64,000 nt of DNA. Source: a virus. Taxonomy: Duplodnaviria > Heunggongvirae > Uroviricota > Caudoviricetes. Position numbers and translations under genes: made by a program. The notes under the pieces were generated by a model. The model made no database searches and was not told where the DNA came from. It saw only the letters and a list, made by a program, of their open reading frames with translations. Positions 8,483 to 61,090 of this stretch are shown here, piece by piece. Numbering within the stretch: position 1 is the first letter of the stretch; every line of letters begins with the position of its first letter. The DNA lies in the IMG/VR virus record IMGVR_UViG_2778261161_000002. One strand, given 5' to 3'.

Positions 8483-8500
8483 TCGCCTTGTTAAGTTAAA

Positions 8501-8509
8501 TTTCTAACA
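8501..8509 (+). promoter_or_regulatory. Operator-like motif TTTCTAACA (copy 1)
   Basis: aaaTTTCTAACAtagtg upstream of ORF 8683. Confidence 0.5.
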
Positions 8510-8599
8510 TAGTGTATTTATATACACTGTTGATCCTGGTGGATGGGATCGAGTAGGATCGCGGTCACTGCTCCGGTAGCGACTGCCAAAAAAGCAAAA

Positions 8600-8682: not shown

Positions 8683-9645
8683 GTGAGTATTTTAAATTCA
8701 GTTTCAGTAACTTTCAACACTTCTGAGTATAAAAACAACACTGAATACCACAAAAAAATCAAAGGTCATCAGTTGAGTTTTTTTGCTCGTCATAGCGGTC
8801 TTCTTTCCCCTTCACATAGCGCCATTATTGCCGAGTTCGCCAACCTGGCAGGGTCTACCGATGAATACATGATCCGTCGCTCATATGCTGATATGTCCGA
8901 GATTACAGGACGCAGCATTTCTACTGTGCGCCGGGCATTTGCTGAAGCGACGAAGTGCGGAATGCTTGTTAAGCAACATCAGGTAGCGAATAACAATGCC
9001 CAGGTGTGTAACGTATATCGGTTTACGACACAATTTCTCCACTTCATTCATGTAGCAATGGAGATAGGGGGTAAGCAGGGCATCAAATTTGCCAACGCCA
9101 CAAAGCTGGTTAAGCAATTGATTTCAAAGGTACGTTATTTTTTTGAAACTGGGAACCCCCTGTTCAAATTGAACAAGTCCCCCCATGTTCAAAATGAACA
9201 GCCAATAGAAAATAAGAGTCACTCTATAGCCAAAAGAAGAGAAAGATCATGCGCGGTTCAGCCAAAGGCTTCACCAGCAGATAGTACTCAAGCGGATAAT
9301 GGGGGACTGGATAAAAAAACAGTAATCAGGGAAGAACATACCAACCACTGCCTGGCGGCGGCAAAAGCGAGAGCTGCAAAGCGTCGTTCAGACGAGGGGC
9401 ACGCAAAACGGCAGGCTCTGTATCGTACCGCTGAAAAGCTGGCAAAAAAATTTGCATGGATACGTAGTGCCGCTACCGCAGTGAATAAGCCTAAACAATC
9501 CAGTGCCCTGGATTTCTCAATGGATTATTCTGGCTCCCAGGGGTGTGTAACCATTGGTGAAGCCTTTGACCTGATGAAACAACGTGGCTATCGGTCTGAA
9601 TTTGACCGGGAGGATTGGTCAATCCCTGCGGGATTTAGGGGATGA
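8683..9645 (+). CDS. HTH DNA-binding protein, possible replication initiator (RepL-like position)
   Basis: HTH-like segment MSEITGRSISTVRRAFAEATKCGMLVKQ; operator-like motif upstream; palindromic repeats inside ORF. Confidence 0.35.
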   Translation: MSILNSVSVTFNTSEYKNNTEYHKKIKGHQLSFFARHSGLLSPSHSAIIAEFANLAGSTDEYMIRRSYADMSEITGRSISTVRRAFAEATKCGMLVKQHQVANNNAQVCNVYRFTTQFLHFIHVAMEIGGKQGIKFANATKLVKQLISKVRYFFETGNPLFKLNKSPHVQNEQPIENKSHSIAKRRERSCAVQPKASPADSTQADNGGLDKKTVIREEHTNHCLAAAKARAAKRRSDEGHAKRQALYRTAEKLAKKFAWIRSAATAVNKPKQSSALDFSMDYSGSQGCVTIGEAFDLMKQRGYRSEFDREDWSIPAGFRG

Positions 9646-9699
9646 CCTGTGTGTCTACAAAGCATCCCAATGATCGGAAAATGCTCGCTCGATGATTTG

Positions 9700-9708
9700 T
9701 GTTAGAAA
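9700..9708 (-). promoter_or_regulatory. Operator-like motif (copy 2, reverse orientation)
   Basis: ttgTGTTAGAAAAtt upstream of first immI-like module. Confidence 0.5.
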
Positions 9709-9929
9709 ATTAATTTGCTGTTTCTAAATCGGAATGTATGATCTGCATCATCGACTGAAGTCATCCATTGCTGAAATTTTTAGTTGATCTTCCATGTTTT
9801 CAGGCTTATATTCATGCCGTCGTAGCAAATTCTGCGACCAGGTTTGACAGCCTGAATGTTAGTGCGGACAACCGCAGATTTCCGATATTGCGGTATTTTT
9901 GTGTCCGTAAACCGCGTTACGCCCGAATT

Positions 9930-19166: not shown

Positions 19167-19427
19167 ATGCGAAAGAATCGTAGGTTTACGGTCGAAGACC
19201 TAAAGGAATATTCCATATCGAAGGGGTATGTCCTTGAGTTCCACCGATACAAGAAGGTTTTTACGCTGCGAAAAGCAGAAAACCCCGCGAACTGGAGCTG
19301 GGTATACTTTCCTCACACCGATGATAAGTTGGTAGAACTTGTTGATGATTTAACCTATGAAGGTTGGTTGATCGCAATCGACAAGACAATCAAAGAATTA
19401 TCCGAACAGGATAAAATAACCCTTTAA
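19167..19427 (+). CDS. Hypothetical protein, 86 aa
   Basis: ORF track. Confidence 0.4.
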   Translation: MRKNRRFTVEDLKEYSISKGYVLEFHRYKKVFTLRKAENPANWSWVYFPHTDDKLVELVDDLTYEGWLIAIDKTIKELSEQDKITL

Positions 19428-19563
19428 AAATAACAGGTTGGGTAAATGCCATGCGATTTACCCTCCTTGTTGATTAAGGTCACTCTTTACTCTAAAAGCA
19501 AATCCGACCTGTTGCATATAGACCATCCTTGAGTAGTATCTCTCTTGTTTTATAAATCTAACG

Positions 19564-20058
19564 TTGTTGTTATTATTTCGCATATTTACTATCAATAGGT
19601 GTGTTAGAAAAATAGCGCGAAAGAGAAGGCGTCGCAGTGAATATTCTGAAACATCCCCACATGCCGCAGCTCTTAGAGAACTGGAGAAAAACCCAGATCT
19701 AATCAAAAGGAACCATGAGCATTACGAGCAGGTTCGCGTCCTGGACTGGTTGTATCGCAATATGCGTTATGTGTATGAGCATACTCACGCCACTCCAAAC
19801 GGTGGCCTGCGAGGCATAAGGACGGCAATAAAAATGGTGGCAGAGGGCCAAAAGAAGGGATATCCCGATCTTTCTATAGACCTTGCTTGTGGGGGATACC
19901 ACGGAATGCGCATTGAGATGAAACATGGGAGAAATCGCCTGACTCCCGAACAACTCGTCTGGATGACCCGCCTCACTGAAGCCGGTTACTACTGCTTTGA
20001 GGCGCGCAGTGCCGCTGAAGCCATAAAAGCTATCACGGAGTATGTTTGTCTTGATTAA
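19564..20058 (+). CDS. VRR-NUC domain nuclease-like protein (5' end uncertain)
   Basis: HATPNGG ... KGYPDLSIDL ... RIEMKHGRNRLTPEQ pattern of VRR-NUC. Confidence 0.55.
   Translation: MLLLFRIFTINRCVRKIARKRRRRSEYSETSPHAAALRELEKNPDLIKRNHEHYEQVRVLDWLYRNMRYVYEHTHATPNGGLRGIRTAIKMVAEGQKKGYPDLSIDLACGGYHGMRIEMKHGRNRLTPEQLVWMTRLTEAGYYCFEARSAAEAIKAITEYVCLD
19602..19610 (-). promoter_or_regulatory. Operator-like motif (copy 3)
   Basis: ggtgTGTTAGAAAAatag; lies inside 5' part of annotated ORF 19564, suggesting the true start is downstream. Confidence 0.5.
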
Positions 20059-20603: not shown

Positions 20604-20644
20604 TTTATTGCATCTTCCGATACCGTCATCAAACTAATAAAATA

Positions 20645-20653
20645 TGTTAGAAA
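20645..20653 (-). promoter_or_regulatory. Operator-like motif (copy 4)
   Basis: atatGTTAGAAAAct upstream of ORF 20668. Confidence 0.5.
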
Positions 20654-20667
20654 ACTAATTTAACAAA

Positions 20668-21795: not shown

Positions 21796-21893
21796 GGAGA
21801 TCGTCGTCAGGAAATCATTGACGCTTGCCGGGTATGGGCGAACGAATGGGATAAGAAGAATGGGGGGGTAGAAGATCTTTATGGGAAATAATG

Positions 21894-21902
21894 TGTTAGA
21901 AA
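21894..21902 (-). promoter_or_regulatory. Operator-like motif (copy 5)
   Basis: aatgTGTTAGAAAtcta. Confidence 0.45.
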
Positions 21903-22049
21903 TCTAAAATCACAATTCGAATGTATTGATTGTGAAGATAACTTAACATAGAATTTTCCTTGCTGGTGGGCGGTACCCACGTTTCGCTTGCTGGGCTTGA
22001 TAGTCACTTATTGGTTATTGTTCTCCCACCAGCATTTAACAAATTAAAG

Positions 22050-22058
22050 TGTTAGAAA
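22050..22058 (-). promoter_or_regulatory. Operator-like motif (copy 6)
   Basis: aagTGTTAGAAAAata. Confidence 0.45.
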
Positions 22059-23125
22059 AATATGGTAATACAAGAGCACGCTTTGGCACCGTGCAGGCCA
22101 AAGTTCAGCAGGTTTAGTGCGGAAAGTGGTTTCAGAGAGAGCACTTTGCGGAGTAAACGACAATACATGTTGAGCCACGGAAGGTCTTTTTAAGGTGTTC
22201 ATTGATGATGGTCCGGCAGAGAGTAACGGTACATGCTGTATCTAATCATCAATGCACATCTTCAACATTAAGGAGGCATAGGGATTTTTGTGGCGGTTAC
22301 CTTTTGCCCTGAGTCTCCTTAATGTTGCGGTAATGCACCTATGCGGATGTGGCCTTGCATTGTGTCTTGAAAGAATGGGGTAAGGCCGGGGATATCCCCA
22401 GGGGGAGGCACCCCCGCTGCAACGAACAGCCACAGACGGCAGTCGAGTGATGGAAACGTGTAAAGACTTTAAACCTCGTTACGGCTGGCGTGGCAAACGC
22501 GACAACCGAGACAGAGCGGTGACGGGCGGAGAGAGTGCCGCATCAAGAAAGAAGCCGACTTGTGATCCCTTTCTGCGGGCATTTGAAAGTGAATCCAGCT
22601 CAGGCAGTCGGCTTCTTTCTTGTGTGAGATGTAGCGTATTTGCCCATCTTCGGGTGGGCTTTTTTAGGGTTTTCGTCATGGTTAGCGACTTTGCGGCGGT
22701 TTAGAAACCGACCATTAAAGTAAATGCAAACGATGATCTGATGATGGTAGCGGCCTAAGAAGCCTGACGCCACGGGGTATGAGTCGTCCCCCGTCAAAAA
22801 ATCGACCGCAGAGTGTCCCCGTCTGTGTATTAGGGAACGGGGAGGCATAACAGGCAAGGGCGCTGGTGTGATTAACCAGATGAATGAGAAGGGTCAGGTC
22901 TTTCTGGTCAGCGCCCTTACCTGTTACGTCCCTCCAGCGTAACAGCCATTGCTTGATGGCACCCTGGGAGAATTTCTTGTAACGGGTAAATCCCGTCATG
23001 CTGAAGGCGCTAATCACGCTGGAAGCCAGGGTTATGCATCCCCTGTTACCGAATTGCAGCCAGGGCGCGATGCGCCGAAAAGCATACGGAGGTGGAAGCC
23101 CTCGCCGGAGACGTACCCGGCAAGT

Positions 23126-23202
23126 GATGGTGTAGCTCAGTAGGATAGAGCAGCAGCCTTCTAAGCTGTCGGTCGGTGGTTCGAATCCATCCACCATCGC
23201 CA
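23126..23202 (+). tRNA. tRNA-Arg (anticodon TCT, reads AGA)
   Basis: Manual fold: acceptor GATGGTG/CACCATC, D-arm GCTC..GAGC, anticodon loop CTTCTAA, T-arm GGTGG-TTCGAAT-CCATC, CCA encoded. Confidence 0.8.
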
Positions 23203-23204
23203 AT

Positions 23205-23279
23205 GCCGGTTTAGCTCAGTTGGTAGAGCGCCTGCCTTGTAAGCAGGATGTCAGCGGTTCGAGTCCGTTAACCGGCACC
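23205..23279 (+). tRNA. tRNA-Thr (anticodon TGT)
   Basis: Acceptor GCCGGTT/AACCGGC, anticodon loop CTTGTAA, T-loop TTCGAGT. Confidence 0.8.
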
Positions 23280-23734
23280 GACACAACAGGTAAGGGTATT
23301 TTGCGACGTCGGAGATCGCCGTGCTTGGCAGAGGGTTCGAATCCCTACGAAGTACCCTTACCGTTGTGATGAAGTGCAGCTCTTTGAAGCAACCAGAAGA
23401 TAAGCATCTGGCTTCACAACATAAACCGCATGAACGACCAATAAACGGTAGTCCGTATGGAGAACACCCCGTTGAGGAAGAGGCCTGGCCGGAACCGTAA
23501 CCGGCACTACAACGTTGAGAACACTGGCGTAACGGGGTCATATCCCAATCTATGAATAAATGTTGCGTTGCAGCGTGACAACCAGTGTTCTCAACATTGT
23601 GGTGAATGCGCAGGCTGATGCGCGAAAGACATTGCAGCTATTGCGGAAAAGAGCTGTTCGGCGGGGCAATTAAACGCCCGTGAGAGTCTGAAATAACCGC
23701 AAGCCGGAGATCAGCACCGGTCGCCACAATCAGC

Positions 23735-23821
23735 GGAGAGTAGGGGGCATGGTGCTCAAGCGGTCTTGAAAACCGTCCCATTGCGCAAGCGATGATGGTT
23801 CGATTCCATTACTCTCCGCCA
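23735..23821 (+). tRNA. Probable class II tRNA, anticodon TGA (Ser-like), long variable arm
   Basis: Acceptor GGAGAGT/ACTCTCC, anticodon arm GCGGT-CTTGAAA-ACCGT identical in loop to E. coli tRNA-Ser(UGA), T-arm GATGG-TTCGATT-CCATT, CCA; D-arm atypical. Confidence 0.55.
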
Positions 23822-24442: not shown

Positions 24443-24518
24443 GGCCCTTTAGCTCAGTGGTTAGAGCAGGCGACTCATAATCGCACGGTCACCGGTTCAA
24501 ATCCGGTAGGGGCCACCA
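24443..24518 (+). tRNA. tRNA-Ile2-like (anticodon CAT, AUA decoder) or tRNA-Met
   Basis: GGCCCTTTAGCTCAGTGGTTAGAGCAGGCGACTCATAATCGC... near-identical to E. coli ileX from memory; T-arm ACCGG-TTCAAAT-CCGGT; CCA. Confidence 0.8.
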
Positions 24519-25548: not shown

Positions 25549-25940
25549 TGTACGGGACTACCAAATTAAGCACTCAACAGGCCACCAATATGGAGTGGTC
25601 TATCGCTAACTGTAAGATCGTGTCATGCAATGTCACGCGTACTGATGTGGGCCATAAAAGCACTATAACAGGCTATCTAGTAATGACCACCAGGGGGATG
25701 AGGGTTAGATTTCGCTGGAAAGCAGAGCAAGTAACGCCATTCAGAGAGCCATCAATGCCGCTGCAGGTTGAGCAGGATTATCTATGTTTACCAGAAATAG
25801 ATGGAGGAATGCTGGTGGAGTCTGATGGTAGTAAGGCTGATTTTGAAGCCAATTTGAAGCTGGCACAGGCCGTAATCAATAGTTATCGCGGAAAGTGGAT
25901 CGCAAAAGTGAAACATGTTGTTCGTTTGTCTCGCTGGTAG
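25548..25940 (+). CDS. Hypothetical protein, 130 aa
   Basis: ORF track; ATGA coupling. Confidence 0.45.
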   Translation: MYGTTKLSTQQATNMEWSIANCKIVSCNVTRTDVGHKSTITGYLVMTTRGMRVRFRWKAEQVTPFREPSMPLQVEQDYLCLPEIDGGMLVESDGSKADFEANLKLAQAVINSYRGKWIAKVKHVVRLSRW

Positions 25941-25961
25941 CGTTAGATATTTAATATTAAT

Positions 25962-25970
25962 TTTCTAATA
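25962..25970 (+). promoter_or_regulatory. Operator-like motif variant TTTCTAATA (copy 7)
   Basis: aatTTTCTAATAtaatc with partial inverted partner cGTTAGATA at 25941. Confidence 0.4.
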
Positions 25971-26048
25971 TAATCATCTTTTTACCAGTCTATACAGTTT
26001 TAACATTCTCATTATCATCCCCTCGGTCATTTCCTGCCCGGGGGATTA

Positions 26049-26441
26049 ATGGAACAAATCAGCAGCGCAGAAATTGCGGATATCATGATCAGGGCTGACT
26101 GCTATCTGACAGTCACTGAAATTACCACTCTCGCCAAAGAAAAATACCCTCATCTCCATGTTTCACGAGTAAGTGTAACTAACATCATTCGTCATTTTGT
26201 TCGTTCAAGCAGGGCAATCTGTGAGCTGGATGATCGTGTGTATCCACGAAAATACTGGCTACATGGTCTGAACGGATATCAGTTCAAGGTGCGCGGGCGC
26301 ACGCCTGAATACGGTAGCTTACTGGTTAAAAACTGTAGCAGGAAATCAGTCGAACAGGCGCGAAAAGAGCAACGAGAGCTGGTGGACATGGCGAATAAGC
26401 TGTGGAATGCCGCCGTTAAAAAGCGTGGTGTTGCTTTATGA
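26049..26441 (+). CDS. Hypothetical protein upstream of pacA (Lpa-like position), 130 aa
   Basis: ORF track; position immediately upstream of terminase genes. Confidence 0.4.
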   Translation: MEQISSAEIADIMIRADCYLTVTEITTLAKEKYPHLHVSRVSVTNIIRHFVRSSRAICELDDRVYPRKYWLHGLNGYQFKVRGRTPEYGSLLVKNCSRKSVEQARKEQRELVDMANKLWNAAVKKRGVAL

Positions 26442-27802
26442 GTCTGGTTAATTGGGAGGAGCACCGCGCCCGCTTTATAGCGTTGCGTGAAGAAAAAGGG
26501 ATCACTGTAAAGGAATACTGTGAGGAGCATGGCCTTAGCTTCAATACAGCCAGAAAGCATCTCAATATGAAAAAAAATGAGGTGCGGTCGCAGGTAAAGA
26601 CAACAAAAAAAAGCACCAAATCACCTGAAAAAAAACGGGCGGGAAGAGCAACAAAAAAGCTGGAAGAGGGCGCAGAAAAAACAAAATTTACAGAAATTGA
26701 CAATTCGCAGGGTGCAGGTTCTTTCCGAAGTATGCCAAGAAAGAAAACTCCGGATCATGAAAGTAATACCAATAATAACAATGAGATAAAAGAATCTGTC
26801 AGGAGATCATTGCGCGAAAAAATGGCGAAAATGATCCCCGAAGAAGATAAAAGCGCCCCAAAAATTGAGGGATCTTCAGCAATGATCCCTGGCGGTGCTG
26901 TGCAACGTGCCACATTGCCCACTACGAATGTGGCTCGCGACATGATGAAGAACGGCGCAGAAGAACACCTGCGGTTAGCAATTCAAATGGCGCAAGAGCG
27001 CGCACTTCAGTATCAAAGCATTGTTGATCAGGAGGCCGAACGTCTACAGGCGGAAATAGACGCCTTGGGCGATAAAGAGCCAGAAGGAATGCACCCTGGG
27101 CAGCGCCTTCTCGGTCTAATCAGTGACGCGGCCTACTACATGAATGATTTTATCAGTAGGTTGGCAGCTATATATCAGTCCGAACAAAAGCTGCGACAGG
27201 GGGATGAAAAGCTTCGTCAGAGCGCTCGCCAGCAAGCATTCAAAGAGGCTGAGGCCAGAGAAAAACTCGAATTAGCACGCCTACAGGCCGAACAGCGTGG
27301 CAAAGAGATTGAATATCGCATTGGCGCTGACGCACGCGCAGCCAGAGTTATCGCCGCCGCTATACGTATGCGTGAGCGCGAGGAACTGGATGATATCGGT
27401 GTTGCTGAATACATCGAGCGCCAGGGGGTCAGCGTCCCGGCTATCCTCGCGGCGCGCGCGGCGAAAGCTATCACTCTTCTCGAACCACCTGTTTCTGACG
27501 TCAATGATGTTGATGATGAACAGCTGGACAAAGAGGCAAGGGAGTTTGCGACGCTTCAGGCTAACCATCCGCAATGGCTGGCAGAGCGCCGGGCGGATGT
27601 GGCAACCATTGTTGAAGAATTGGGGTGCGGAGATTACGACCGCAATGGCGAGCGTAAAGCTGGAGAATTCGAGGCCAACGACGAAGAGCTGGATATTGAC
27701 CCTTCGGCAACGGCTGAAATTTACGGTGATTATGATGCATCTGATGCAGGGTATGACGCCGGAGATGATGATATCGCGATAGAACCGCCGGAGGATGATT
27801 AA
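26438..27802 (+). CDS. pacA: Terminase small subunit PacA-like, 454 aa, acidic C-terminus
   Basis: Position upstream of and coupled to PacB-like ATPase; basic N-terminus, acidic tail DASDAGYDAGDDDIAIEPPEDD; contains GATC cluster. Confidence 0.55.
   Translation: MSLVNWEEHRARFIALREEKGITVKEYCEEHGLSFNTARKHLNMKKNEVRSQVKTTKKSTKSPEKKRAGRATKKLEEGAEKTKFTEIDNSQGAGSFRSMPRKKTPDHESNTNNNNEIKESVRRSLREKMAKMIPEEDKSAPKIEGSSAMIPGGAVQRATLPTTNVARDMMKNGAEEHLRLAIQMAQERALQYQSIVDQEAERLQAEIDALGDKEPEGMHPGQRLLGLISDAAYYMNDFISRLAAIYQSEQKLRQGDEKLRQSARQQAFKEAEAREKLELARLQAEQRGKEIEYRIGADARAARVIAAAIRMREREELDDIGVAEYIERQGVSVPAILAARAAKAITLLEPPVSDVNDVDDEQLDKEAREFATLQANHPQWLAERRADVATIVEELGCGDYDRNGERKAGEFEANDEELDIDPSATAEIYGDYDASDAGYDAGDDDIAIEPPEDD
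26750..26890. other. Candidate pac (packaging cleavage) site: 5 GATC sites in about 135 bp
   Basis: GATC at 26753, 26805, 26833, 26871, 26884 in contexts GGATCA, AGATCA, TGATCC, GGATCT, TGATCC. Confidence 0.45.
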
Positions 27803-29310
27803 TGGCTGGAGGGCGCAAGATTAAATGCGTCACCAGCGATCCACGCTGGCGCGATATGGTAATCAAATACCGCTACAACTTTACCCAGGCTGTTGTCGAT
27901 ATTTTTGGGATGTTCCCCTCCCACCAGCAGCAGCAGATCATTCAGTCCGTGCAGGAAACGGGGAGTAGGACGACCGTCACGTCCGGACACGGAACGGGGA
28001 AGTCGTCCCTTACCGCGATGTTGCTGTTGATTTTCATGATCCTGTTCCCCGATGCCCGTGTCATCATTGTTGCTAACAAGATAGGCCAGGTAAAAACAGG
28101 CGTATTCAAATACGTTAAACAGTATTGGGCGAATGCAGTTAAGCGTCATGGGTGGTTGCAGACCTATTTTGTCCTCTCTGACACCATGTTTTATGAGCGC
28201 TCCCGTAAGGGGATTTGGGAAGTTCTCTGCAAAGGTTATCGACTCGGCAACGAAGAAGCGCTGGCGGGGGAACACGCGGCACATTTGCTTCTAATTCTGG
28301 ATGAAGCATCTGGTATATCTGATAAGGCGATCGGCGTAATGACCGGTGCTCTTACTGAAGAAGATAACCGGATGTTGATGCTATCCCAGCCAACAAGGCC
28401 AAGTGGTTATTTTTACGATTCGCACCATTCTCAAGCAAAAACCCCAGACAACCCGAAAGGGATCTGGACAGCAATTGTTCTTAACTCGGAAGAATCACCG
28501 TTCGTCACACCACAATTCATCAAGCAGAAGCTTCTGGAATATGGGGGGCGCGATTCTATTGAGTACATGGTCAAGGTGCTTGGTCAGTTCCCACGAGAAA
28601 TTAACGGCTATTTGCTTGGTCGTGATGAATGCGATCGCGCTGCTCGCCGCAAGGTGCTGTTGGAGAAAAACTGGGGATGGGTGGCAACGGCTGACGTTGG
28701 TAATGGGCGAGATAAGTCGGTCCTCAACATCTGCAAGGTATCTGGTCACAGGGATAAGCGGCGCGTTGTTAACTTTAAGGTAATGGAGATGCCTGGCACT
28801 ATGGACCCATTGGCCTTTGCTGACTTCATATATAACGAATGTACGCCGGAAAAATACCCGAATATAACAATCGCGGTTGATGCTGATGGTTTTGGTTCTG
28901 ATACGTGTGCGCAGTTGGTGCGTCGTGGTGCGAACCCGGTACGTATTCGGTGGGGAAAACCCATGTTTGCGAACAAAGACAGGGAGCGATTTGTTAATCA
29001 GCGTGCCTACGCAAATATTATGGCGCGAGATGCCATAAAGTCAGGGCGTATGCGGATAGACAGTGACCCTAAAACGGCAGAGCAAGCGTCAAAAATCCCC
29101 TTTTTACTGAATGAAGAAGGGAAAATGGCGATGATGCGCAAAGAGCACATGCGGCAAAAGCTAAACATCAAATCGCCTGACCGATGGGATACCTACTGCT
29201 TCACTATGCTGGTGGACTATGTGCCTGCTAATGAAGATATTGGTGCCGAAATGGCAACTTTCCGAGATCAGGTTCTGGCGGATATCGAAATGCCGGATCT
29301 GGATATATAA
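27802..29310 (+). CDS. pacB: Terminase large subunit PacB-like, 502 aa
   Basis: Walker A TSGHGTGKSS, Walker B LLLILDEASGI, C-terminal acidic nuclease-like region. Confidence 0.75.
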   Translation: MAGGRKIKCVTSDPRWRDMVIKYRYNFTQAVVDIFGMFPSHQQQQIIQSVQETGSRTTVTSGHGTGKSSLTAMLLLIFMILFPDARVIIVANKIGQVKTGVFKYVKQYWANAVKRHGWLQTYFVLSDTMFYERSRKGIWEVLCKGYRLGNEEALAGEHAAHLLLILDEASGISDKAIGVMTGALTEEDNRMLMLSQPTRPSGYFYDSHHSQAKTPDNPKGIWTAIVLNSEESPFVTPQFIKQKLLEYGGRDSIEYMVKVLGQFPREINGYLLGRDECDRAARRKVLLEKNWGWVATADVGNGRDKSVLNICKVSGHRDKRRVVNFKVMEMPGTMDPLAFADFIYNECTPEKYPNITIAVDADGFGSDTCAQLVRRGANPVRIRWGKPMFANKDRERFVNQRAYANIMARDAIKSGRMRIDSDPKTAEQASKIPFLLNEEGKMAMMRKEHMRQKLNIKSPDRWDTYCFTMLVDYVPANEDIGAEMATFRDQVLADIEMPDLDI

Positions 29311-29311
29311 A

Positions 29312-29328
29312 GCCCCGCGATGCGGGGC
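29312..29328. terminator. Hairpin GCCCCGC-ga-TGCGGGGC between convergent pacB and repressor-like gene
   Basis: Read directly; weak U-run. Confidence 0.45.
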
Positions 29329-29337
29329 CGGTTGTGA

Positions 29338-30375
29338 TTACCAGAGCTTCGCGGCGTACTGCGTTTGGGGGAATGTGTATCCGTAACGTTCTTCGATTGC
29401 TTTGCCGTATTTTTTACGAGCTTCATTCAGTTTAATGCCGGTCAGGTCGTCTCCAGAGGCCATCATTACGTCTAACAATTCCAGATCCATTTTATCCAGC
29501 CTTGCCATTGCTTCACGTGATGTACGTATCTTACGTTCAATGATATGGCGAATAGCCGGATCGGCATCCTCCAGCATCTTAGCGGATTTCTGCTTAAGGC
29601 TTTCATTGCGAATATCGATGTTCCTTAAGATGTACGACTTCGCAACGTAGCTTGGCTGGTGTTTTTCCAGGTCACGAACACGATATAAGTTAAAATCGCC
29701 GAGAAGGCTGCAAGGTACCGATTCGACGCCAGAATAAATTGTAATGCTCCGGCGTTCACCAACATTATTGACAACGGGGATCGTTGTCTTCGGTAGTCTT
29801 GCGAAAACCAATGCGCCATGTGCGCCAACTCTAAAGCGAGAAAGGGCATTGCTGCCTTCGATGTTTGTTGTCAGCACAACATCTGTATATGCCTCTTTAC
29901 GCGCCCGGTAGATCTCGCCTTCAGGCTCAGCTTCAAAGAAGCGCTGTTCTTCTTCAAGAGCACCTACGATTTGAGAAAAAACCCTATTTTTCAGGCTTTT
30001 CTTTATGATTTTGTCGTATTTTTTTAGCAATTGTTCACGTGTAAATGTACGTGTTGTTGTAGCGCTTTGCACAACGACATGCGTGCTTTGATTGGTGTCC
30101 TCAATGATGAATGGGATCGGAGAATATACAGACTCAACAATGTTCGACGCTTTGCCGTCGGCATCGCGGCACATGTCAACGAAGGCTTTCCATTCAGCAA
30201 GACATTTTTCAGCTTCTTCTAATATGTTTTGGTCATGCGTTAATGCAACATGGCGGAATTCCTCGCCAGCATAACTGGTATCATGGAAAACAGAGTTTGC
30301 GACCACCAGCTCTTTCCACCGTTCAGCGGTTTGCAGGAACCGTTTGTACTCTTTCTCGATCGACTTCTTACTCAT
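29338..30375 (-). CDS. Putative C1-like immunity repressor, 345 aa
   Basis: Position between pacB and lox/cre as in P1; operator-like motif 20 bp upstream of its start; no family motif verified. Confidence 0.4.
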   Translation of the reverse strand: MSKKSIEKEYKRFLQTAERWKELVVANSVFHDTSYAGEEFRHVALTHDQNILEEAEKCLAEWKAFVDMCRDADGKASNIVESVYSPIPFIIEDTNQSTHVVVQSATTTRTFTREQLLKKYDKIIKKSLKNRVFSQIVGALEEEQRFFEAEPEGEIYRARKEAYTDVVLTTNIEGSNALSRFRVGAHGALVFARLPKTTIPVVNNVGERRSITIYSGVESVPCSLLGDFNLYRVRDLEKHQPSYVAKSYILRNIDIRNESLKQKSAKMLEDADPAIRHIIERKIRTSREAMARLDKMDLELLDVMMASGDDLTGIKLNEARKKYGKAIEERYGYTFPQTQYAAKLW

Positions 30376-30394
30376 TATTCCTACTCGATTTAGT

Positions 30395-30403
30395 TTTCTA
30401 ACA
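30395..30403 (+). promoter_or_regulatory. Operator-like motif (copy 8) at promoter of repressor-like gene
   Basis: agtTTTCTAACAtaaaatt; partial second copy TTTTAGAAAA at 30477..30488. Confidence 0.5.
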
Positions 30404-30584
30404 TAAAATTACTATGACAAATTTATGTCGAATAACAGAGTGAGTAAAGGATCGAACTGTGATTTTTTGTCATCAATTTTAGAAAACCAACCGTAGAAAC
30501 CACACTTCGCAAATTAAAGACCATGAAGGCAACGTGTTACTGGTCATCATCAATCTATGATGGATTTAAAAAAATCGGCATTTT

Positions 30585-30618
30585 ATAACTTTAAATAATT
30601 GGCATTATTTAAAGTTAG
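30585..30618 (+). other. lox-like recombination site: ATAACTTTAAATA-ATTGGCAT-TATTTAAAGTTAG
   Basis: 13-bp inverted arms (12 of 13 complementary) around an 8-bp asymmetric spacer; outer arm ATAACTT identical to loxP; about 150 bp upstream of Cre homolog. Confidence 0.7.
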
Positions 30619-30626
30619 GCTATAAT
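30599..30626 (+). promoter_or_regulatory. Sigma70-like promoter TTGGCA-N16-TATAAT overlapping the lox-like site
   Basis: -35 TTGGCA 30599..30604 lies in the lox spacer; -10 TATAAT 30621..30626; reads toward cre homolog. Confidence 0.45.
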
Positions 30627-30769
30627 CATGTGTAGATGAACAGTGTTGACATCACTGAAAATACGTGCCTCGAATCAAAGGCTTGTATTTTGAAAATTAA
30701 CTTATAGCTACCCTGTCATTTTTATATTTTTCGCGTAGCGTCATCTGTATATAGAGGTGTAATAGTTTC

Positions 30770-31798
30770 ATGAGTGAATTAATTATCTCTGGCAGTTCCG
30801 GTGGTTTTCTGCGCAACATTGGCAAAGAGTACCAGGAAGCCGCAGAAAACTTTATGCGGTTCATGAATGACCAGGGGGCTTATGCGCCGAATACTCTGCG
30901 CGACCTCCGGTTGGTGTTTCATTCCTGGGCGCGCTGGTGTCACGCTCGCCAGCTTGCCTGGTTTCCGATCTCACCAGAAATGGCCCGCGAGTATTTTCTT
31001 CAGCTGCATGATGCCGATCTGGCTTCGACCACCATTGATAAGCACTACGCCATGCTGAACATGCTGCTTTCGCATTGTGGCCTTCCGCCACTTTCGGATG
31101 ATAAAAGTGTTTCTCTGGCTATGCGGCGCATCCGGCGCGAAGCGGCAACTGAAAAAGGCGAACGAACAGGCCAGGCTATACCGCTTCGGTGGGACGATCT
31201 GAAACTGCTCGACGTCCTGTTGTCCAGGTCAGAACGGCTGGTGGACCTGCGCAACCTGGCTTTTCTCTTTGTTGCATACAATACGCTGATGCGTATGTCG
31301 GAAATATCGCGTATTCGTGTAGGTGATCTGGACCAAACAGGTGACACTGTCACGCTACATATTTCACACACGAAGACAATAACGACCGCCGCCGGGCTTG
31401 ATAAGGTGCTTTCCCGTCGCACTACCGCTGTGCTGAATGACTGGCTGGATGTTTCCGGGCTTCGCGAGCATCCTGACGCTGTGCTGTTCCCGCCGATACA
31501 CCGTAGCAATAAGGCCAGGATCACGATAACGCCCCTTACTGCACCTGCAATGGAGAAAATATTCAGCGACGCCTGGGTGTTGCTGAATAAAAGAGATGCT
31601 ACGCCAAACAAAGGAAGATACCGGACGTGGACCGGGCATAGTGCACGCGTCGGGGCCGCTATTGATATGGCTGAAAAGCAGGTGTCTATGGTGGAGATCA
31701 TGCAGGAAGGAACCTGGAAGAAACCGGAAACACTTATGCGGTATCTTCGCCGTGGCGGCGTGTCTGTGGGGGCTAATAGCCGCCTGATGGATTTGTAA
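30770..31798 (+). CDS. cre: Cre-like tyrosine recombinase, 342 aa
   Basis: Blocks WFPISPEMAREYFLQL, NMLLSHCGLPPLSDDKSVSLAMRRIRRE, IRNLAFLFVAYNTLMRMSEISRIRVGDL, WTGHSARVGAAIDMA, LMRYLRR align with P1 Cre including catalytic R, H, R, W, Y. Confidence 0.85.
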   Translation: MSELIISGSSGGFLRNIGKEYQEAAENFMRFMNDQGAYAPNTLRDLRLVFHSWARWCHARQLAWFPISPEMAREYFLQLHDADLASTTIDKHYAMLNMLLSHCGLPPLSDDKSVSLAMRRIRREAATEKGERTGQAIPLRWDDLKLLDVLLSRSERLVDLRNLAFLFVAYNTLMRMSEISRIRVGDLDQTGDTVTLHISHTKTITTAAGLDKVLSRRTTAVLNDWLDVSGLREHPDAVLFPPIHRSNKARITITPLTAPAMEKIFSDAWVLLNKRDATPNKGRYRTWTGHSARVGAAIDMAEKQVSMVEIMQEGTWKKPETLMRYLRRGGVSVGANSRLMDL

Positions 31799-31804
31799 AT
31801 TAAA

Positions 31805-31813
31805 TTTCTAACA
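31805..31813 (+). promoter_or_regulatory. Operator-like motif (copy 9)
   Basis: aaaTTTCTAACAcatct just after cre stop. Confidence 0.45.
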
Positions 31814-31871
31814 CATCTTTTTAGATTAACATCTTTGCTGTAAAGTACCCTCGCCTATTTAGGAGGGTGCT

Positions 31872-37250: not shown

Positions 37251-38000
37251 TCAGCTTTCGTTGGCATGGTCCGCCTCATGTTTATCAGCCACCAGCGGCA
37301 ATAAAGCCTTCGCCATTTCATGAACCAACATGGCATCAATGACGCCTAGCGTATGGCCCGGCTTAATCTTTAATGCGGCCTCAAGATAGCCTCTTTCCAG
37401 AGTGGTTTTTACGCTTTTCCTGGGCGCTTGTTGGGAACTATCCGGAAAATCCGGATGGTTCCCAGCCTCATAAGCTACCCGCAACCAGTGCATGAATGTT
37501 TCCGCAGACACACAACCGCAGTCCACATCGATTTTCCCGCGTTGCTGTTCCAGCCATTGCTCAAAATCTAACTTGTAAGCCTTACTTTCAGACTTAACTT
37601 TCTGAGACGCTATGCGAGCTGCTTCATACTGTTCACGAGTGACAACCGATGTAAACGCACTGCGATCAAGGTCACTGATATCGCAAATAATGCCATCAAT
37701 GGAATAATTCTTTGATGATTGGTAATTTTTATGGCGCGTACCAAAAAGAACCGTAGCGCGACTACTACCTGGCATCGTAATGGATAGATGGCAAAAATCT
37801 TTTCCATCAGGCCATCCACGCCCCTTAGATAATTCCTTCACTAACAAGTCAATCAGTGTCATAGCTTTACCATCCTTGCAAGGCGCTAAAGCTATTTTGG
37901 CAAGCTCCAATACTTCATCTGCTGTGTATCCAGCACCGTGACCATACATTTCGATACGGGAAATAATATCTGAAATACGCTCTTTAGTGATTCTTGTCAT
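37251..38000 (-). CDS. Hypothetical protein; N-terminus paralogous to ORF 39067..39987
   Basis: MTRITKERISDIISRIEMYGHGAGYTADEVLELAKIALA vs MTTITKERLLTIKQWRETYGPGSNVVLPAEEAEELARIALA. Confidence 0.5.
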   Translation of the reverse strand: MTRITKERISDIISRIEMYGHGAGYTADEVLELAKIALAPCKDGKAMTLIDLLVKELSKGRGWPDGKDFCHLSITMPGSSRATVLFGTRHKNYQSSKNYSIDGIICDISDLDRSAFTSVVTREQYEAARIASQKVKSESKAYKLDFEQWLEQQRGKIDVDCGCVSAETFMHWLRVAYEAGNHPDFPDSSQQAPRKSVKTTLERGYLEAALKIKPGHTLGVIDAMLVHEMAKALLPLVADKHEADHANES

Positions 38001-38206
38001 AGTTTTATTTCCTTGCATGGTTCGCCTTTACGGCAAACAGCTACACGGTCATTTCTTACATTAACCACAGTCACCGTTCCGTCATCGCATTGAATAACGA
38101 TGAAAGGGTGTTCATTCTCTTTTGTGCAATGTTGCTGTTCCCCTGCTGTAACAGTGAGGGGAATTAATAAAATAATAATTACTGCGAATTTACTAAATGT
38201 TGCCAT
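37997..38206 (-). CDS. Small secreted protein with signal peptide, 69 aa
   Basis: MATFSKFAVIIILLIPLTVTAGEQ; four Cys in mature part. Confidence 0.45.
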   Translation of the reverse strand: MATFSKFAVIIILLIPLTVTAGEQQHCTKENEHPFIVIQCDDGTVTVVNVRNDRVAVCRKGEPCKEIKL

Positions 38207-38230
38207 AGCAATCTTTCTTTCTGTTTTTCA

Positions 38231-38524
38231 TTATGGTTGAATCCAGTTATCTTCAATAGCAATGCTCAATCTTTGTAACCATTCTGCTAATTTCAGCATT
38301 GCTTCTCTTTCGCTTAAACCACGAGGAAAATCATCAAGCGATATTGTTGGCTTGAAGTTTCCCAAATTATCCATTTCAACGGTCAGATTTTGCTCCAGCA
38401 CGGTATTCCTTACGCGGCTATTGTGCCGAAGCAAATATACTGAACGTGATTTATTGGTTTTGTGGTCGAACGTATATTCGGTAAGTATCATCTGGCTTCC
38501 GCCATGATTATTACCGCGCCACAT
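38231..38524 (-). CDS. Hypothetical protein, 97 aa
   Basis: ORF track. Confidence 0.4.
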   Translation of the reverse strand: MWRGNNHGGSQMILTEYTFDHKTNKSRSVYLLRHNSRVRNTVLEQNLTVEMDNLGNFKPTISLDDFPRGLSEREAMLKLAEWLQRLSIAIEDNWIQP

Positions 38525-38831
38525 AATTACTCCGTGTTAATTTTACCTTTATCGCGAACACCTTTACCGGTTTATCGCCGAAGTGCGGGTGTGTGATTAT
38601 CTTGATTTCATAGCCGTCATACGGAACATCAATTCTGCGGCTGGAATCGTCGCGCTTCGGATATCCCTTTGTGATAATCAGGCGGTCATACTTACGGTTA
38701 ACGAGGCGCTTATTCCAGTAGTCATTACACAGGCGATACTCTTCCGTTTTCTCCCCGCGAATCATGGCATCGAAGTATTCACCTTTAACGGCAAGTTGCA
38801 GGTTAGCCATTACCTCACCTCCAGTCTCCAT
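38511..38831 (-). CDS. ASCH/PUA-like domain protein
   Basis: ANLQLAVKGEYFDAMIRGEKTEEYR pattern. Confidence 0.4.
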   Translation of the reverse strand: METGGEVMANLQLAVKGEYFDAMIRGEKTEEYRLCNDYWNKRLVNRKYDRLIITKGYPKRDDSSRRIDVPYDGYEIKIITHPHFGDKPVKVFAIKVKLTRSNYVAR

Positions 38832-39070
38832 ACCGCCTGACCAATCCGGCTGGCATGGGTATCTTTGGATACTGTTCCGTCTTTAGCCAGCTCCATAAGA
38901 ATTTTGCGCAAATCTGCCGAACGCCATTCTTCATCAGGAAATTCCTTCTCCATTGCCAACCGCAGATTCCAGGTTGCCATCCTGAATGGATATTCCCCGC
39001 CGAGAGCTTTATCTTGCAGGGCAGCCCGGGAACGCATCACCTGCAAAACCTTCTCTTTTACATCCATCAT
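38810..39070 (-). CDS. Hypothetical protein, 86 aa
   Basis: ORF track. Confidence 0.4.
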   Translation of the reverse strand: MMDVKEKVLQVMRSRAALQDKALGGEYPFRMATWNLRLAMEKEFPDEEWRSADLRKILMELAKDGTVSKDTHASRIGQAVWRLEVR

Positions 39071-39987
39071 TCCGCCTCCTGCGGCGGTTCTGGTAGCGGC
39101 ATCCAGTGAGTTACTTTCGATGCCGGTTCTTCCCCATCGTCAGTAACTGCCCACCATTTGTTTCTCGACCAATCGTAATACCCTTCGAAGGTATTGCACT
39201 CAGTCCAGCCGTAAGACTTACCCCAACACCAAACATACTGTTTATCGTTCGGCATTCGCTCACTACAGCTTATCCAACTATCCGGAGTTCCCGGAGAGTT
39301 GCCATTTACATCGAAGTTTGGCTCTGCGTCCTGAACCAGGAGGATGTAACCATTCTTGGCCGTATCAAGTTCTAACGCCTCGGTGACGGTGCCGAAATAG
39401 CGATTACCTAAATCAGCATCACAAGTGCTTACATCAATGGAAACTTCCATGCCTTCGATTAATTCTGGCAAGTTGTAAGTTTGGCTTACAGGTTGGCTAC
39501 CCTGAAGCATGGCAGCGTGGCAGGCTTCATCAACCATAGCTTCTACGTTTTCGAGAAGTACGTAACTGTACTGCTGCCCACTAACCCATTCTTTTCTGCG
39601 AGGTAATGCGCGTGGGTCCGCTACAATGGTTCGCAAACGTTCCAGAACAGCAGGCACTACCGGCTCTACTGCCAACTGACTGGCATATTTGTTAATGGTA
39701 ACGATAAGCTCTTGCTCGGCCTCATCCAGACAATCACCGATACCTCGCCTGTCACCGTCAAAATCATCGAAATCGGCACGAATCCTGGCAACCTCCCGGA
39801 TTGCGGACAACACTTCACCAGGAATAAGCGGAGAGTTGCCCGATAGTACATTCTGCTCCAGTGATGCCAGAGCAATTCGTGCCAGTTCTTCCGCTTCTTC
39901 TGCTGGCAGTACAACGTTGCTACCAGGTCCGTATGTTTCGCGCCACTGCTTGATTGTCAGCAGTCGCTCTTTGGTAATAGTGGTCAT
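39067..39987 (-). CDS. Hypothetical protein, 306 aa
   Basis: ORF track; N-terminal paralogy with 37251..38000. Confidence 0.5.
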   Translation of the reverse strand: MTTITKERLLTIKQWRETYGPGSNVVLPAEEAEELARIALASLEQNVLSGNSPLIPGEVLSAIREVARIRADFDDFDGDRRGIGDCLDEAEQELIVTINKYASQLAVEPVVPAVLERLRTIVADPRALPRRKEWVSGQQYSYVLLENVEAMVDEACHAAMLQGSQPVSQTYNLPELIEGMEVSIDVSTCDADLGNRYFGTVTEALELDTAKNGYILLVQDAEPNFDVNGNSPGTPDSWISCSERMPNDKQYVWCWGKSYGWTECNTFEGYYDWSRNKWWAVTDDGEEPASKVTHWMPLPEPPQEAE

Positions 39988-40428
39988 AGTTAGTTACTCT
40001 CCATAGTCTAATTTAACAAGTCGGCATTTGAGATATCCAAAATTCTCTGGCTTGGCATCTCTTAAATAAAATTCTTCAGGGAGTTTCCCCCTTATTTTTA
40101 ATCTGCATAATTCTGTAAAAAACAACCCCCTATGATTTACAGGCTCACAACGCGGCATTATCACAAACAACCCAATCCTGCTACCTGATATCACAGGACA
40201 TAACGCGGCATCGTTAATTGTCGACATTTGGCGCTCCTGCAAGTTAGCCAGCAAACCATGTAAAAATAGTTTCCATGATTTAAATGTTGGAATTTTTATC
40301 ACGTAATGTCGCAAAACTATTACTACACGCGTTGCACCACGCCGGTTAATATAAGCTCGCCTGAAGTTTGTCACGGTCTAATCTCCACCCTCTGAATCTG
40401 ACAGAGTTCGCGGTGTGTTAACGCCATA

Positions 40429-40926
40429 TCACTCTCCTTTGATGCGAATGCCAGTGGTACTCATTCTCCTGATTTCCCAGAGCACACGAGGAACACCACC
40501 GTTTCCGACCGGATCGCGTTTACTCCGCAGGGCGACGCTTGATTCCGCCCAGCTTTTTCTTGGAGGAAGCTCTTTCACACGAACAAAACCAGCTGCGCGA
40601 AGAGATGCTCCTGATTCATCTGCCTGGGTGTACGTAATACAACGTTGATAACCCATAGCTTTTGCTGCCCGCCAGATAGCACCATAAAGCGCGCTGTTAG
40701 CGTTGCGTTCTCCTGTGGTACATGTGCGATTTACTTCAAGCGTTAATCCATCGTCCAAATGTCGTGCAACAGGTCTACCGGCTGTCGCCACACCTATCAA
40801 TTCTCCGGCATCATTTCTCAGACCAATGCTGAATTTATGCCCCACCGGGGGTTTATTGTGTCGGTGATGTCTGGATATAAACGCCTTCGCAACACGAAGA
40901 GTAACCGGTGAAATCTGCACTCTCAC
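40429..40926 (-). CDS. Hypothetical protein, 165 aa, ends GIRIKGE
   Basis: ORF track; 3' end shares 25-bp direct repeat with next gene. Confidence 0.45.
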   Translation of the reverse strand: MRVQISPVTLRVAKAFISRHHRHNKPPVGHKFSIGLRNDAGELIGVATAGRPVARHLDDGLTLEVNRTCTTGERNANSALYGAIWRAAKAMGYQRCITYTQADESGASLRAAGFVRVKELPPRKSWAESSVALRSKRDPVGNGGVPRVLWEIRRMSTTGIRIKGE

Positions 40927-42274: not shown

Positions 42275-42277
42275 GGT

Positions 42278-43970: not shown

Positions 43971-44012
43971 AATGCATACCGACTCTGTTTTGTTCCGAGC
44001 GGTAAAATAATA

Positions 44013-44021
44013 TGTTAGAAA
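44013..44021 (-). promoter_or_regulatory. Operator-like motif (copy 10) with inverted partner TTCTAAC at 44034..44041
   Basis: atatGTTAGAAAActaaaatcaatGTTCTAACg. Confidence 0.5.
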
Positions 44022-44068
44022 ACTAAAATCAATGTTCTAACGCATTTTTGAGTGCGTAAGTGATTTGA

Positions 44069-45562: not shown

Positions 45563-45807
45563 TGTGGAGGCTCCTGCTTTTCTGCCTTCAATACCATGCG
45601 AGAACCATCATCCAGCTCCCAATTAATTTCACCGCCTTCAGCCATGACTAGATGCCAAACGAGTTGTGCGGCCTCGTTGGTTACATCGCGACCGCGATCA
45701 TTGCCGACACGACGTTTTGTTCCATCCCCTAAGTCACGCATTTTTGCCAACACGATTGTTTTTGATAGCGGTGAAAAACCAAGCTGTAGTCGTGCTGAAT
45801 TGCTCAC
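45559..45807 (-). CDS. Hypothetical protein, 82 aa
   Basis: ORF track. Confidence 0.4.
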   Translation of the reverse strand: MSNSARLQLGFSPLSKTIVLAKMRDLGDGTKRRVGNDRGRDVTNEAAQLVWHLVMAEGGEINWELDDGSRMVLKAEKQEPPQ

Positions 45808-48417: not shown

Positions 48418-48584
48418 AACATAAGCACTGCGAAAAGCTCAATACCAAGTTCAAGTAGCGCCAACGCCCCGAAAAACAACACATAGAACAGGCCAATCTC
48501 ATTCACAGATGGCTGGTGGATCGCACTTAAAGCTATAAGCATCATGTCCTCCAAACAGTTATCAGGAATGATATTAATGTTTTG

Positions 48585-48593
48585 TGTTAGAAA
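48585..48593 (-). promoter_or_regulatory. Operator-like motif (copy 11), promoter region of leftward operon
   Basis: tttgTGTTAGAAAAtcaa. Confidence 0.5.
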
Positions 48594-48662
48594 ATCAATT
48601 TTGAATATCTAACTGTTTTGATCAATCATAGAAAAATAGCTGAAAAGTAAGAGGCAGCCATC

Positions 48663-49241
48663 ATGCAGAAACAGAGCTATTGGGAGAAACAGAGACAAAA
48701 AGCCATGCAAAAATTGGCTGACCCAGCCTGGCGAGAGGAACAAAGGGCAAAGCGCCTTCAACAAGCTCAACGCCAGCAGCAGCGAGCGAGAGAAAAAGCC
48801 GCATCGCCTGAATATCGGCAAAAGAAAATTGAAAAAGCAAAGCAATATGAACAGCGGAGAAAAGATAAAGCTGTATCCGCTCCGCCCAAAAAAACACGCA
48901 CGTCACGCGGCCTGAAGGGCAGATCACTCACAGCCGATGAACGCCGGATACAGACCGCTATCGGTACTCTCCCCTGCATTGCCTGCCATATTCACGGGCA
49001 ACATAGCCCAGTGGTATCCCTGCACCATATCTTCGGGAGAACGGCAGAGAACGCACATAAATATGTCCTCCCTTTGTGTAAATGGCACCACCAGTACGCA
49101 GCGCCAGCCGAGGTCCGAGAACAATATCCCTGGCTGGTCCCTGTTCATGCTGATGGAAAAATAGGCGGAAAAGCAGATTTCATACGGCACAATGCCGATG
49201 AAATGGCGTTGTATCAGATGGCGATTGAATTAATAAATTAG
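48663..49241 (+). CDS. Ref-like HNH endonuclease with basic disordered N-terminus
   Basis: K/R/Q-rich N-terminal 90 aa then CIACHIHG ... HHIFG ... CKWHH metal-binding pattern. Confidence 0.5.
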   Translation: MQKQSYWEKQRQKAMQKLADPAWREEQRAKRLQQAQRQQQRAREKAASPEYRQKKIEKAKQYEQRRKDKAVSAPPKKTRTSRGLKGRSLTADERRIQTAIGTLPCIACHIHGQHSPVVSLHHIFGRTAENAHKYVLPLCKWHHQYAAPAEVREQYPWLVPVHADGKIGGKADFIRHNADEMALYQMAIELIN

Positions 49242-49242
49242 T

Positions 49243-49251
49243 TTTCTAACA
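49243..49251 (+). promoter_or_regulatory. Operator-like motif (copy 12)
   Basis: agtTTTCTAACAtttta. Confidence 0.45.
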
Positions 49252-49879
49252 TTTTAAGTTGAATTGTAAATTTCTCCGATGTACATTCACTACCGATTGG
49301 CACACCGGTCAACTTTTTGAGACAAACTGTTTAGTTTTTCGTATTATTGCCCCCGCCATACCTATGGCGGTGCAATATAGGTGGCTGAAAAGCCCCCGTT
49401 GACTCACGGTGTTCCAGCCTTTATTGCGCCGCCACCAGACCGTGGAACAGTCGATGGCGGCTCCGAAAGCAAGGAGTCACTACACTATGAACAACTACAG
49501 TCTTTTCCCATCACTCGTCGTCCACCACTCACGCGATAATCTGCATTCTTTATTCGCGCTGGGGGAGTCAAAATGACTGTTCGCTACCTCAACTTTCAAA
49601 TCAAGAACATTACTGGCGGTTGCTATGACTGGTTTGTCACTCTCGGAAAAGAAGTGATTACCGGGAAGCTGGATGAAGTGAAAGCTAAAGCAATGGCCTA
49701 CGCCTGCAAGCAAGCCCGGAAGAAATCCGCCAAAGCATAAAATACTGACTGTTGCGCCCTGGCATTATCGTGGGGTATATTTCTACGGCACCTTAGAAAA
49801 ACGGGTGCCGGGATTGGAACCCCGGATAATGCAAAAGGCGACACAGACGCCGAAAGCGTCTTTTCTTGTGTCATGCCAT

Positions 49880-52974: not shown

Positions 52975-53206
52975 TGCACCGTTCCTTCATGCAATCAAAA
53001 TGACTTTTATGTTATAAAAATAATCAGCCAAATCAACATGATTTAGGCCAAATTTCTGTCAAAAAATAAAATCCACAAAAAGTGGTTGACACTATTTTGG
53101 AAATCACAAACTGCACATAATCCATCGCGCTAACGGCTCCCGTTGAAGGTTCTTTTGACGATTAACTTTCAGCCGAAGCGCGGTAGGGAGTCATAACGCC
53201 AAAGCA

Positions 53207-61044: not shown

Positions 61045-61081
61045 AAAATGCACCCATTTATGTTAGATAATTAACATGCAT

Positions 61082-61090
61082 TTTCTAACA
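61082..61090 (+). promoter_or_regulatory. Operator-like motif (copy 13) with inverted partner TGTTAGATA at 61061..61069
   Basis: tttaTGTTAGATAattaacatgcaTTTTCTAACAtaaat immediately upstream of rdgC. Confidence 0.5.

Follow-up and report, generated by a model that had tools for sequence, protein, structure and literature searches.

The immunity repressor C1 of phage P1 binds 22 asymmetric operators of 17 bp (ATTGCTCTAATAAATTT) at dispersed positions. Under its control are RepL and Lpa (PMC8546580), as well as ref, ssb, dmt, kilA and ban (PMC4713147); the P1 record NC_005856 annotates C1 operators at lpa and around c1. In P1 and P7, immC comprises c1, coi, imcA/B and the operators Oc1a-e, while immI provides the c4-icd-antirepressor part of the tripartite immunity circuit. 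A c1 gene is also present in phage D6 (AAV84948.1 in AY753669.1; D6_1, ASR76322.1 in MF356679.1), where it lies between pacB and rox/dre. It has been annotated in GenBank as a P1 C1-like repressor since 2004, in records that carry no operator or promoter features. Here, we analyse the corresponding open reading frame (ORF) in a 64-kb stretch of the IMG/VR virus record IMGVR_UViG_2778261161_000002 (hereafter, the window), which covers only part of a roughly 90-kb element. The window is from a D6-like E. coli phage-plasmid that is not D6 itself, and the ORF very probably encodes the master immunity (lysogeny) repressor of this P1-family element, a distant and longer homolog of P1/P7 C1 with operators dispersed over the window. 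The c1 gene of D6-type phage-plasmids is already known, and its annotation as such is routine; an operator consensus, a candidate regulon map and a conserved promoter-operator arrangement for D6-type elements, which are common in E. coli, Salmonella and Shigella, are absent from the GenBank records.

Relationship of the ORF to P1 C1

The ORF starts with ATG, encodes 345 amino acids and occupies 29338..30375 on the minus strand, stop codon included. BLASTP of its product against P1 C1 (from NC_005856) gave 21% identity over 240 collinear residues with an E value of 2e-8, and in a tblastn search of the window with P1 C1 the ORF was the sole match. We built family alignments of 9 D6-type sequences (43-90% identity) and 11 P1-type sequences; compared by hhalign, these matched with 97% probability and an E value of 1e-10, pairing residues 7-241 of the D6-type protein with residues 8-246 of P1 C1. 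The Pfam family PF27008 (Phage_P7_repressor_C1) is precomputed on the cluster of the ORF and matches 10/10 D6-type and 20/20 P1-type sequences, and the NCBIfam model NF041318 (phage_rep_C1) matches residues 7-240 of the ORF product (E 9e-6). The first-pass annotation of this DNA had put the ORF forward as a putative immunity repressor and had left its homology to P1 C1 to a hidden Markov model or BLAST comparison; the searches above place the protein in the same family and not in an unrelated one, and together with the gene position and the D6 annotation described below they bear out the proposal. Judged by sequence, the product truly belongs to the C1 family, as a distant member, and is not an equivalog of P1 C1.

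The homologous core of approximately 240 residues is shared with P1/P7 C1, but the proteins differ in length: 283 residues in P1 versus 345 in the window, where a conserved helical extension follows the core at the C-terminus. The greater length had already been pointed out, and it is not peculiar to this element. A profile search of 1.8 billion representatives returned 133 clusters, which comprise short, P1-like proteins (approximately 250-285 residues) and long, D6-like ones (approximately 345-380 residues). Other resources say less. A Pfam scan of the ORF gave no match, but it is uninformative on homology because P1 C1 was likewise unmatched in that Pfam release, which is older than PF27008. 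In PHROGs the ORF matches phrog_1678 only, labelled 'unknown function', and sequence searches of the PDB with the ORF protein and with an 89-sequence profile returned nothing meaningful. Neither Pfam nor NCBIfam matched an HTH_3-type or Cro/CI domain in the ORF, with or without peptidase S24. A lambda-type CI/Cro repressor was considered and rejected, given this lack of helix-turn-helix matches and by the alpha/beta, Tus-like predicted fold.

The gene neighbourhood is that of P1 c1, as had been noted from the gene order: the ORF lies between pacB and a recombination module of the lox/cre type, convergent with the former (27802..29310, plus strand) and transcribed away from the recombinase. The module itself is rox/dre. 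The rox site is a 32-bp inverted repeat (TAACTTTAAATAATTGGCATTATTTAAAGTTA) at 30586-30617, separated from c1 by 210 bp, and dre (30770..31798, plus strand) encodes a 342-residue tyrosine recombinase. P1/P7 c1 occupies the same position, in the same orientation, between pacB and a lox-type site, and the order pacB-c1-recombinase module is the same in the relatives L007 and L008.

Positions 29000-31000 are 99.5-99.8% identical to phage D6 by megablast, and the c1 coding sequence differs from that of D6 at 1 nucleotide in 1038 (99.9% identity), so that the two are essentially the same gene. The D6 record AY753669.1 labels it 'c1, phage repressor protein, similar to the C1 repressor of phage P1' and MF356679.1 labels it 'prophage repressor'; in D6 the inverted repeat is likewise labelled rox site, and the recombinase Dre. 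The c1 region is also 100% identical to several E. coli plasmids in which the gene is labelled 'phage repressor protein', and 140 plasmid records match it in total. Outside c1, the window and D6 share blocks of 76-99% identity interrupted by gaps and indels. The window is a mosaic relative of D6 (MF356679.1), with stretches such as approximately 37400-42970 and 45570-47360 that have no D6 match.

Putative operator sites, predicted c1 promoter and candidate regulon

Comparison of 14-mers between the c1 upstream region and the whole window revealed that the segment 30390-30403 recurs about 15 times, and alignment of the copies yielded a 16-bp consensus, TTARTTTTCTAACAYA, which is asymmetric. When up to 3 mismatches are allowed, this consensus has 19 matches in the window versus 1.9 +/- 1.5 expected, and none of 100 shuffles reached 19; the count is partly circular, since it was made in the very sequence that supplied the pattern. 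A position weight matrix (PWM) separates 14 strong sites, scoring 19.7-24.8, from a background with a mean of -15 and a standard deviation of 6.3; 6 further sites score 12.8-16.4, and 5 of these have a strong site no more than about 160 bp away. The strong sites are intergenic or fall at annotated gene starts and ends. Three pairs (25939/25957, 44011/44029 and 61059/61077) share one geometry, with a minus-strand site at x followed by a plus-strand one at x+18, head-to-head and with 2 bp between the 16-mers. This fixed arrangement, found at lpa, pdcB and hrdC, suggests that these sites are occupied cooperatively or by dimers.

The motif and the P1 operator have a common core, TCTAAyA, and are otherwise different. 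No copy of the P1 operator consensus is present in the window, which fits a separate immunity specificity of a related repressor. In their distribution the two systems are alike: both P1/P7 and the D6-type element have many dispersed asymmetric operators of 16-17 bp, some of them paired, and both have them at c1, lpa, repL (via kilA in P1), ref, dmt and immI. These features support the view that the motif behaves as a C1-type operator: it is dispersed, asymmetric, approximately 16 bp long and located before homologs of operons that C1 controls in P1.

At c1 itself, the first-pass annotation had pointed to an operator-like motif about 20 bp upstream of the start codon and to a partial copy about 100 bp upstream, and both are present. 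The proximal site, TTAGTTTTCTAACATA, is an exact consensus copy with the top PWM score (24.8); it is located 15-30 bp upstream of the ATG at 30390..30405 and is antisense to c1 (plus strand). The distal site, TTGGTTTTCTAAAATT, is degenerate (PWM score 15.4) and inverted relative to the proximal one, and lies on the minus strand at 30475..30490, 100-115 bp upstream of the ATG. The regions upstream of c1 in six relatives (89, 69, 61, 51, 48 and 44% protein identity) were aligned with that of the window. The flanking DNA has diverged to a mean column identity of 51%, but three blocks are kept. The proximal core, TGTTAGAAAA, is invariant in 7/7 loci, about 15-30 nt before the start codon. A distal core of the TTTTCTAA type, in the opposite orientation, is found 81-83 nt from the proximal core in 5/7 loci and at 87 and 95 nt in the other two. 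The third block consists of TTTACT, exactly 17 variable nucleotides and TA(A/G)(A/G)TT in 6/7 loci, with TTTACG-17-TATAGA in the most distant relative; its upstream hexamer is 45 nt from the proximal operator core in 5/7 loci and 47-50 nt from it in the other two.

We take this third block as the c1 promoter, Pc1, with a predicted -35 element (TTTACT) at 30443..30448 and a predicted -10 element (TAAATT) at 30420..30425, both on the minus strand; a Shine-Dalgarno sequence, AGGA, can be read at 30379..30382 (minus strand). Pc1 likely lies between the two operators, with a predicted start near 30413, and the proximal operator would therefore sit in the 5' leader at about +9 to +24, the distal one at about -62 to -77. 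The earlier claim that c1 has an operator at its own promoter holds in essence, with one refinement: two operators bracket a conserved promoter, and the proximal site is placed in the leader and not on the hexamers. In this the D6-type arrangement departs from that of P1, where Oc1ab overlaps the -35 element of Pc1 (P1 record).

To name the genes near the remaining sites, we transferred the D6 gene annotation to the window through BLAST matches. Several sites precede homologs of genes known to be under C1 control in P1 or immunity functions. A paired operator (25939-25954, minus strand; 25957-25972, plus strand) lies upstream of lpa (26049..26441), and a single operator (8496..8511, plus) upstream of repL (8683..9645). 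The divergent promoter region of ref and orf88 (ref start 48663) contains one at 48583..48598 (minus), and a second pair (61059-61074, minus; 61077-61092, plus) precedes the hrdC-dcm-dmt operon (hrdC start 61104). Operators are also found upstream of each of two immI-like regions, at 9698..9713 (minus) for the first (icd 10059.., ant) and at 49238..49253 (plus) for the second (icd 50053..). The third pair (44011..44044) is upstream of a pdcB homolog that starts at 43970 on the minus strand. Single sites lie just past the dre stop codon, upstream of the orf117-orf116-dut operon (31872..), at 31800..31815 (plus), and upstream of simB (start 52974, minus strand) at 53008..53023 (minus). An exact consensus copy at 20643..20658 (minus) is located 10-25 bp upstream of pmgS (20668..). 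Two minus-strand operators, at 19546-19561 (weak) and 19600-19615, mark the start of pmgM, and two more, at 21892-21907 and 22048-22063, follow pmgS and precede an ORF-poor 1.2 kb and tRNA genes.

The same sites could be read differently, with the ORF still a C1 homolog but the motif part of a promoter or a site bound by some other factor, such as a late-promoter box dependent on Lpa or a target of a host protein. The motif is rich in AT, and its -10-like (TAACAT) and -35-like (TTGATT/TTAGTT) hexamers can be read as promoter parts at several sites; some copies also precede the 'morphogenetic' genes pmgS and pmgM. Yet copies of the motif point in either direction with respect to the gene that follows, and some form head-to-head pairs of constant spacing. 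The motif also stands before lpa itself, c1, repL and the immI regions, all of which serve early or immunity functions in P1. Its core is similar to the P1 C1 operator, and at c1 the proximal copy lies downstream of the conserved promoter and does not form it. We therefore consider this explanation unlikely and read the motif as the operator of the C1 homolog.

The P1 partners of C1 were searched for by tblastn with the P1 proteins. Coi, ImcA and ImcB have no match in the window, and within this part of the element neither does Lxc, which was also not detected in a D6-like plasmid (PMC6799933). Compared with immC of P1/P7, the c1 locus of the window is thus without coi and imcA/B upstream and the window without an lxc homolog. 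The gap between c1 and rox holds a single small ORF, of 33 codons (30423..30524), that is kept in the closest relative alone; not being conserved among relatives, it was rejected as a coi-like gene, in agreement with the first-pass annotation, which had seen none. An 86-residue ORF (orf13 of D6; 19167..19427, plus strand) directly follows the ulx homolog, which is the exact position of lxc in P1, and is a positional candidate for a corepressor analog. Neither orf13 nor the C-terminal extension of C1 has BLASTP similarity to P1 Lxc, and both were rejected as its equivalents; Pfam and NCBIfam gave no informative matches for either.

The c4-icd-antirepressor part of the P1-type circuit is present twice. 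Rfam matches C4 antisense RNAs at 9926-10011 and 49911-49998, both above the gathering score (76.7 and 66.3 bits). The two immI-like modules (9806-10011 and 49788-49998) are complete, with a1b1 targets, icd and ant homologs after C4, and an operator before. Just upstream of the second C4, at 49788-49866, Rfam also reports a match to the Hfq-binding RNA isrK.

From the homology, the gene order and the statistics, placement and conservation of the motif, we infer DNA binding, repression, autoregulation and looping in the following way. The N-terminal core of approximately 245 residues would recognise the 16-bp operator, of which at least 14 strong copies are dispersed over the window, and from single or head-to-head paired sites would shut off early and lytic operons. 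Its targets would include lpa (the late-gene activator), repL (lytic replication), ref, hrdC-dcm-dmt and the two c4-icd-ant antirepressor regions, with the operons headed by pdcB, simB, pmgS, pmgM and orf117 as further candidates. C1 would also limit its own synthesis from Pc1 (TTTACT-17-TAAATT), bracketed by the weak upstream operator and the consensus operator in the leader; bound C1 could keep RNA polymerase from leaving the promoter or from elongating, perhaps aided by a loop that joins the sites, which are approximately 85 bp apart. With no coi gene ahead of c1, the route to de-repression would be the two antirepressor modules under c4 control, and induction by this route is what the conserved promoter-operator layout without coi predicts.

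The two complete C4 antisense RNA regions, together with the lack of Coi and Lxc matches in the window, might instead indicate that the C1 homolog is only an accessory and that immunity specificity is set mainly by the c4 RNA/antirepressor modules or by another repressor. We regard this as very unlikely: in P1 the c4/ant module acts through C1 and not in its place (PMC8546580), operators precede both immI-like regions and would place both under C1, and no other repressor-like gene with a dispersed site set of its own was seen.

Some observations weigh against the assignment of the ORF as the master repressor acting at these operators. The ORF product shares only about 20% identity with P1 C1 and scores 25.4 bits against NF041318, for which the equivalog cutoff is 500 and P1 C1 itself reaches 607.5 bits. 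A strict sigma-70 scan found no promoter on the c1 strand upstream of c1; it missed Pc1 because only 8 of the 12 hexamer positions match, and the Pc1 call is based on that match and on conservation. The operator count has the circularity mentioned above, and several sites precede genes labelled 'morphogenetic' (pmgS, pmgM). Finally, with Coi and Lxc not found in the window, the regulatory logic may differ from that of P1.

Predicted fold of the C1 core

An AlphaFold2 (AF2) model of the whole protein has a predicted local distance difference test score (pLDDT) of 84, and a model of residues 1-245 made with 89 sequences has a pLDDT of 94.2 and a predicted template modelling score of 0.84. The conserved core (codons 1-245; 29641..30375, minus strand) is predicted to be an alpha/beta domain, presumably the operator-binding part of the protein, with a fold that matches E. 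coli Tus (PDB 1ecr, 4xr0-2) and nothing else to a comparable extent. Tus and C1 both recognise asymmetric DNA sites, of about 16-23 bp, but Tus arrests replication forks whereas C1 represses transcription from sites at promoters. Sequence comparisons add little to the match: the Pfam family PF05472 ('Ter') matches 2/89 family members with E values of 0.012 or weaker, Tus was not among the matches of the PDB sequence search, and hhalign of the C1 family gave 12.6% probability against a single E. coli Tus sequence, as the Tus homologs listed are all at least 81% identical to the E. coli protein and yielded no useful profile. A likeness of the operator to TerB (12/14 positions with a 2-nt gap) was rejected, since 2.5-7% of shuffled or random controls are equally good (p about 0.03-0.07). 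We found no paper linking C1 and Tus in the literature searched, a search that left subscription literature and Pfam/ECOD notes outside; 'Tus' matches in PMC13092281 refer to 'TUs' (transcriptional units) and are irrelevant. The Tus-like core is thus a fold-level prediction and not established homology.

The fold match might suggest that the protein is a Tus-like polar barrier to replication forks or helicases, or a DNA binder for plasmid maintenance, with Ter-like motifs and repression secondary or absent, but this is extremely unlikely given that the repressor role of the homologous P1 C1 is experimentally established (PMC8546580, PMC4713147), that the sites cluster at promoters and gene starts and not in a fork-trap arrangement, and that neither the sequence similarity to Tus nor the operator likeness to TerB is significant.

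Following the core of the repressor, codons 246-345 (29338..29640, minus strand) encode the C-terminal helical extension. These approximately 100 residues lie outside the region aligned with P1 C1, have no counterpart there and no Pfam match, and form a long helical hairpin and a small 3-helix bundle in the AF2 model. The extension is conserved in the 9 D6-type sequences, with R251, K282, M296, D297, S307, G308, D309 and R320 invariant, and we propose that it is an oligomerisation or co-regulator module. More tentatively, it is possible that the P1/D6 C1 family as a whole is an evolutionary relative of Tus, in which a monomer clamps its asymmetric site via a Tus-like beta-sheet cleft, and that the D6-type branch has added the helical module, maybe for oligomerisation and looping or to take on the co-regulator roles of Lxc or Coi. 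A Tus-like fold, if true, would provide a structural explanation for the binding of asymmetric operators and a possible mobile-element relative of Tus, and is the one point here that may interest specialists.

Neighbouring features

A G+C-rich hairpin (29311..29329; 8-pair stem with 7 GC pairs) separates the convergent pacB and c1 genes and is likely their shared terminator. On the other side of c1, a strong sigma-70-like promoter (TTGGCA-16-TATAAT, 11/12; 30599-30626) begins within the rox spacer and is directed towards dre. Variant rox-like sites, with arms TTATCTAAAGTTA versus TTATTTAAAGTTA in D6, are present in L008 (9727-9758), where the spacer differs too, and in the relatives L012 and L009 (about 776-800). 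Each adjoins its own Dre-like recombinase gene, and they are possibly additional pairs of heterospecific recombinases and sites.

The 1.2 kb between pmgS and the tRNA genes (21892-23125), which open with the two operator copies described above, contain no convincing ORFs; they might form the leader of a tRNA operon under C1 control or hold an unannotated RNA. The tRNA genes themselves (23126-23821 and 24443-24515, plus strand) were found by ARAGORN and Rfam; ARAGORN calls Arg-TCT, Thr-TGT and Ser-TGA, and Rfam confirms the first two and adds the tRNA at 24443-24515. The tRNAs of D6 are annotated in GenBank on the opposite strand relative to the neighbouring genes, and the first is called Asn there, in a region that is 78% identical to the window.

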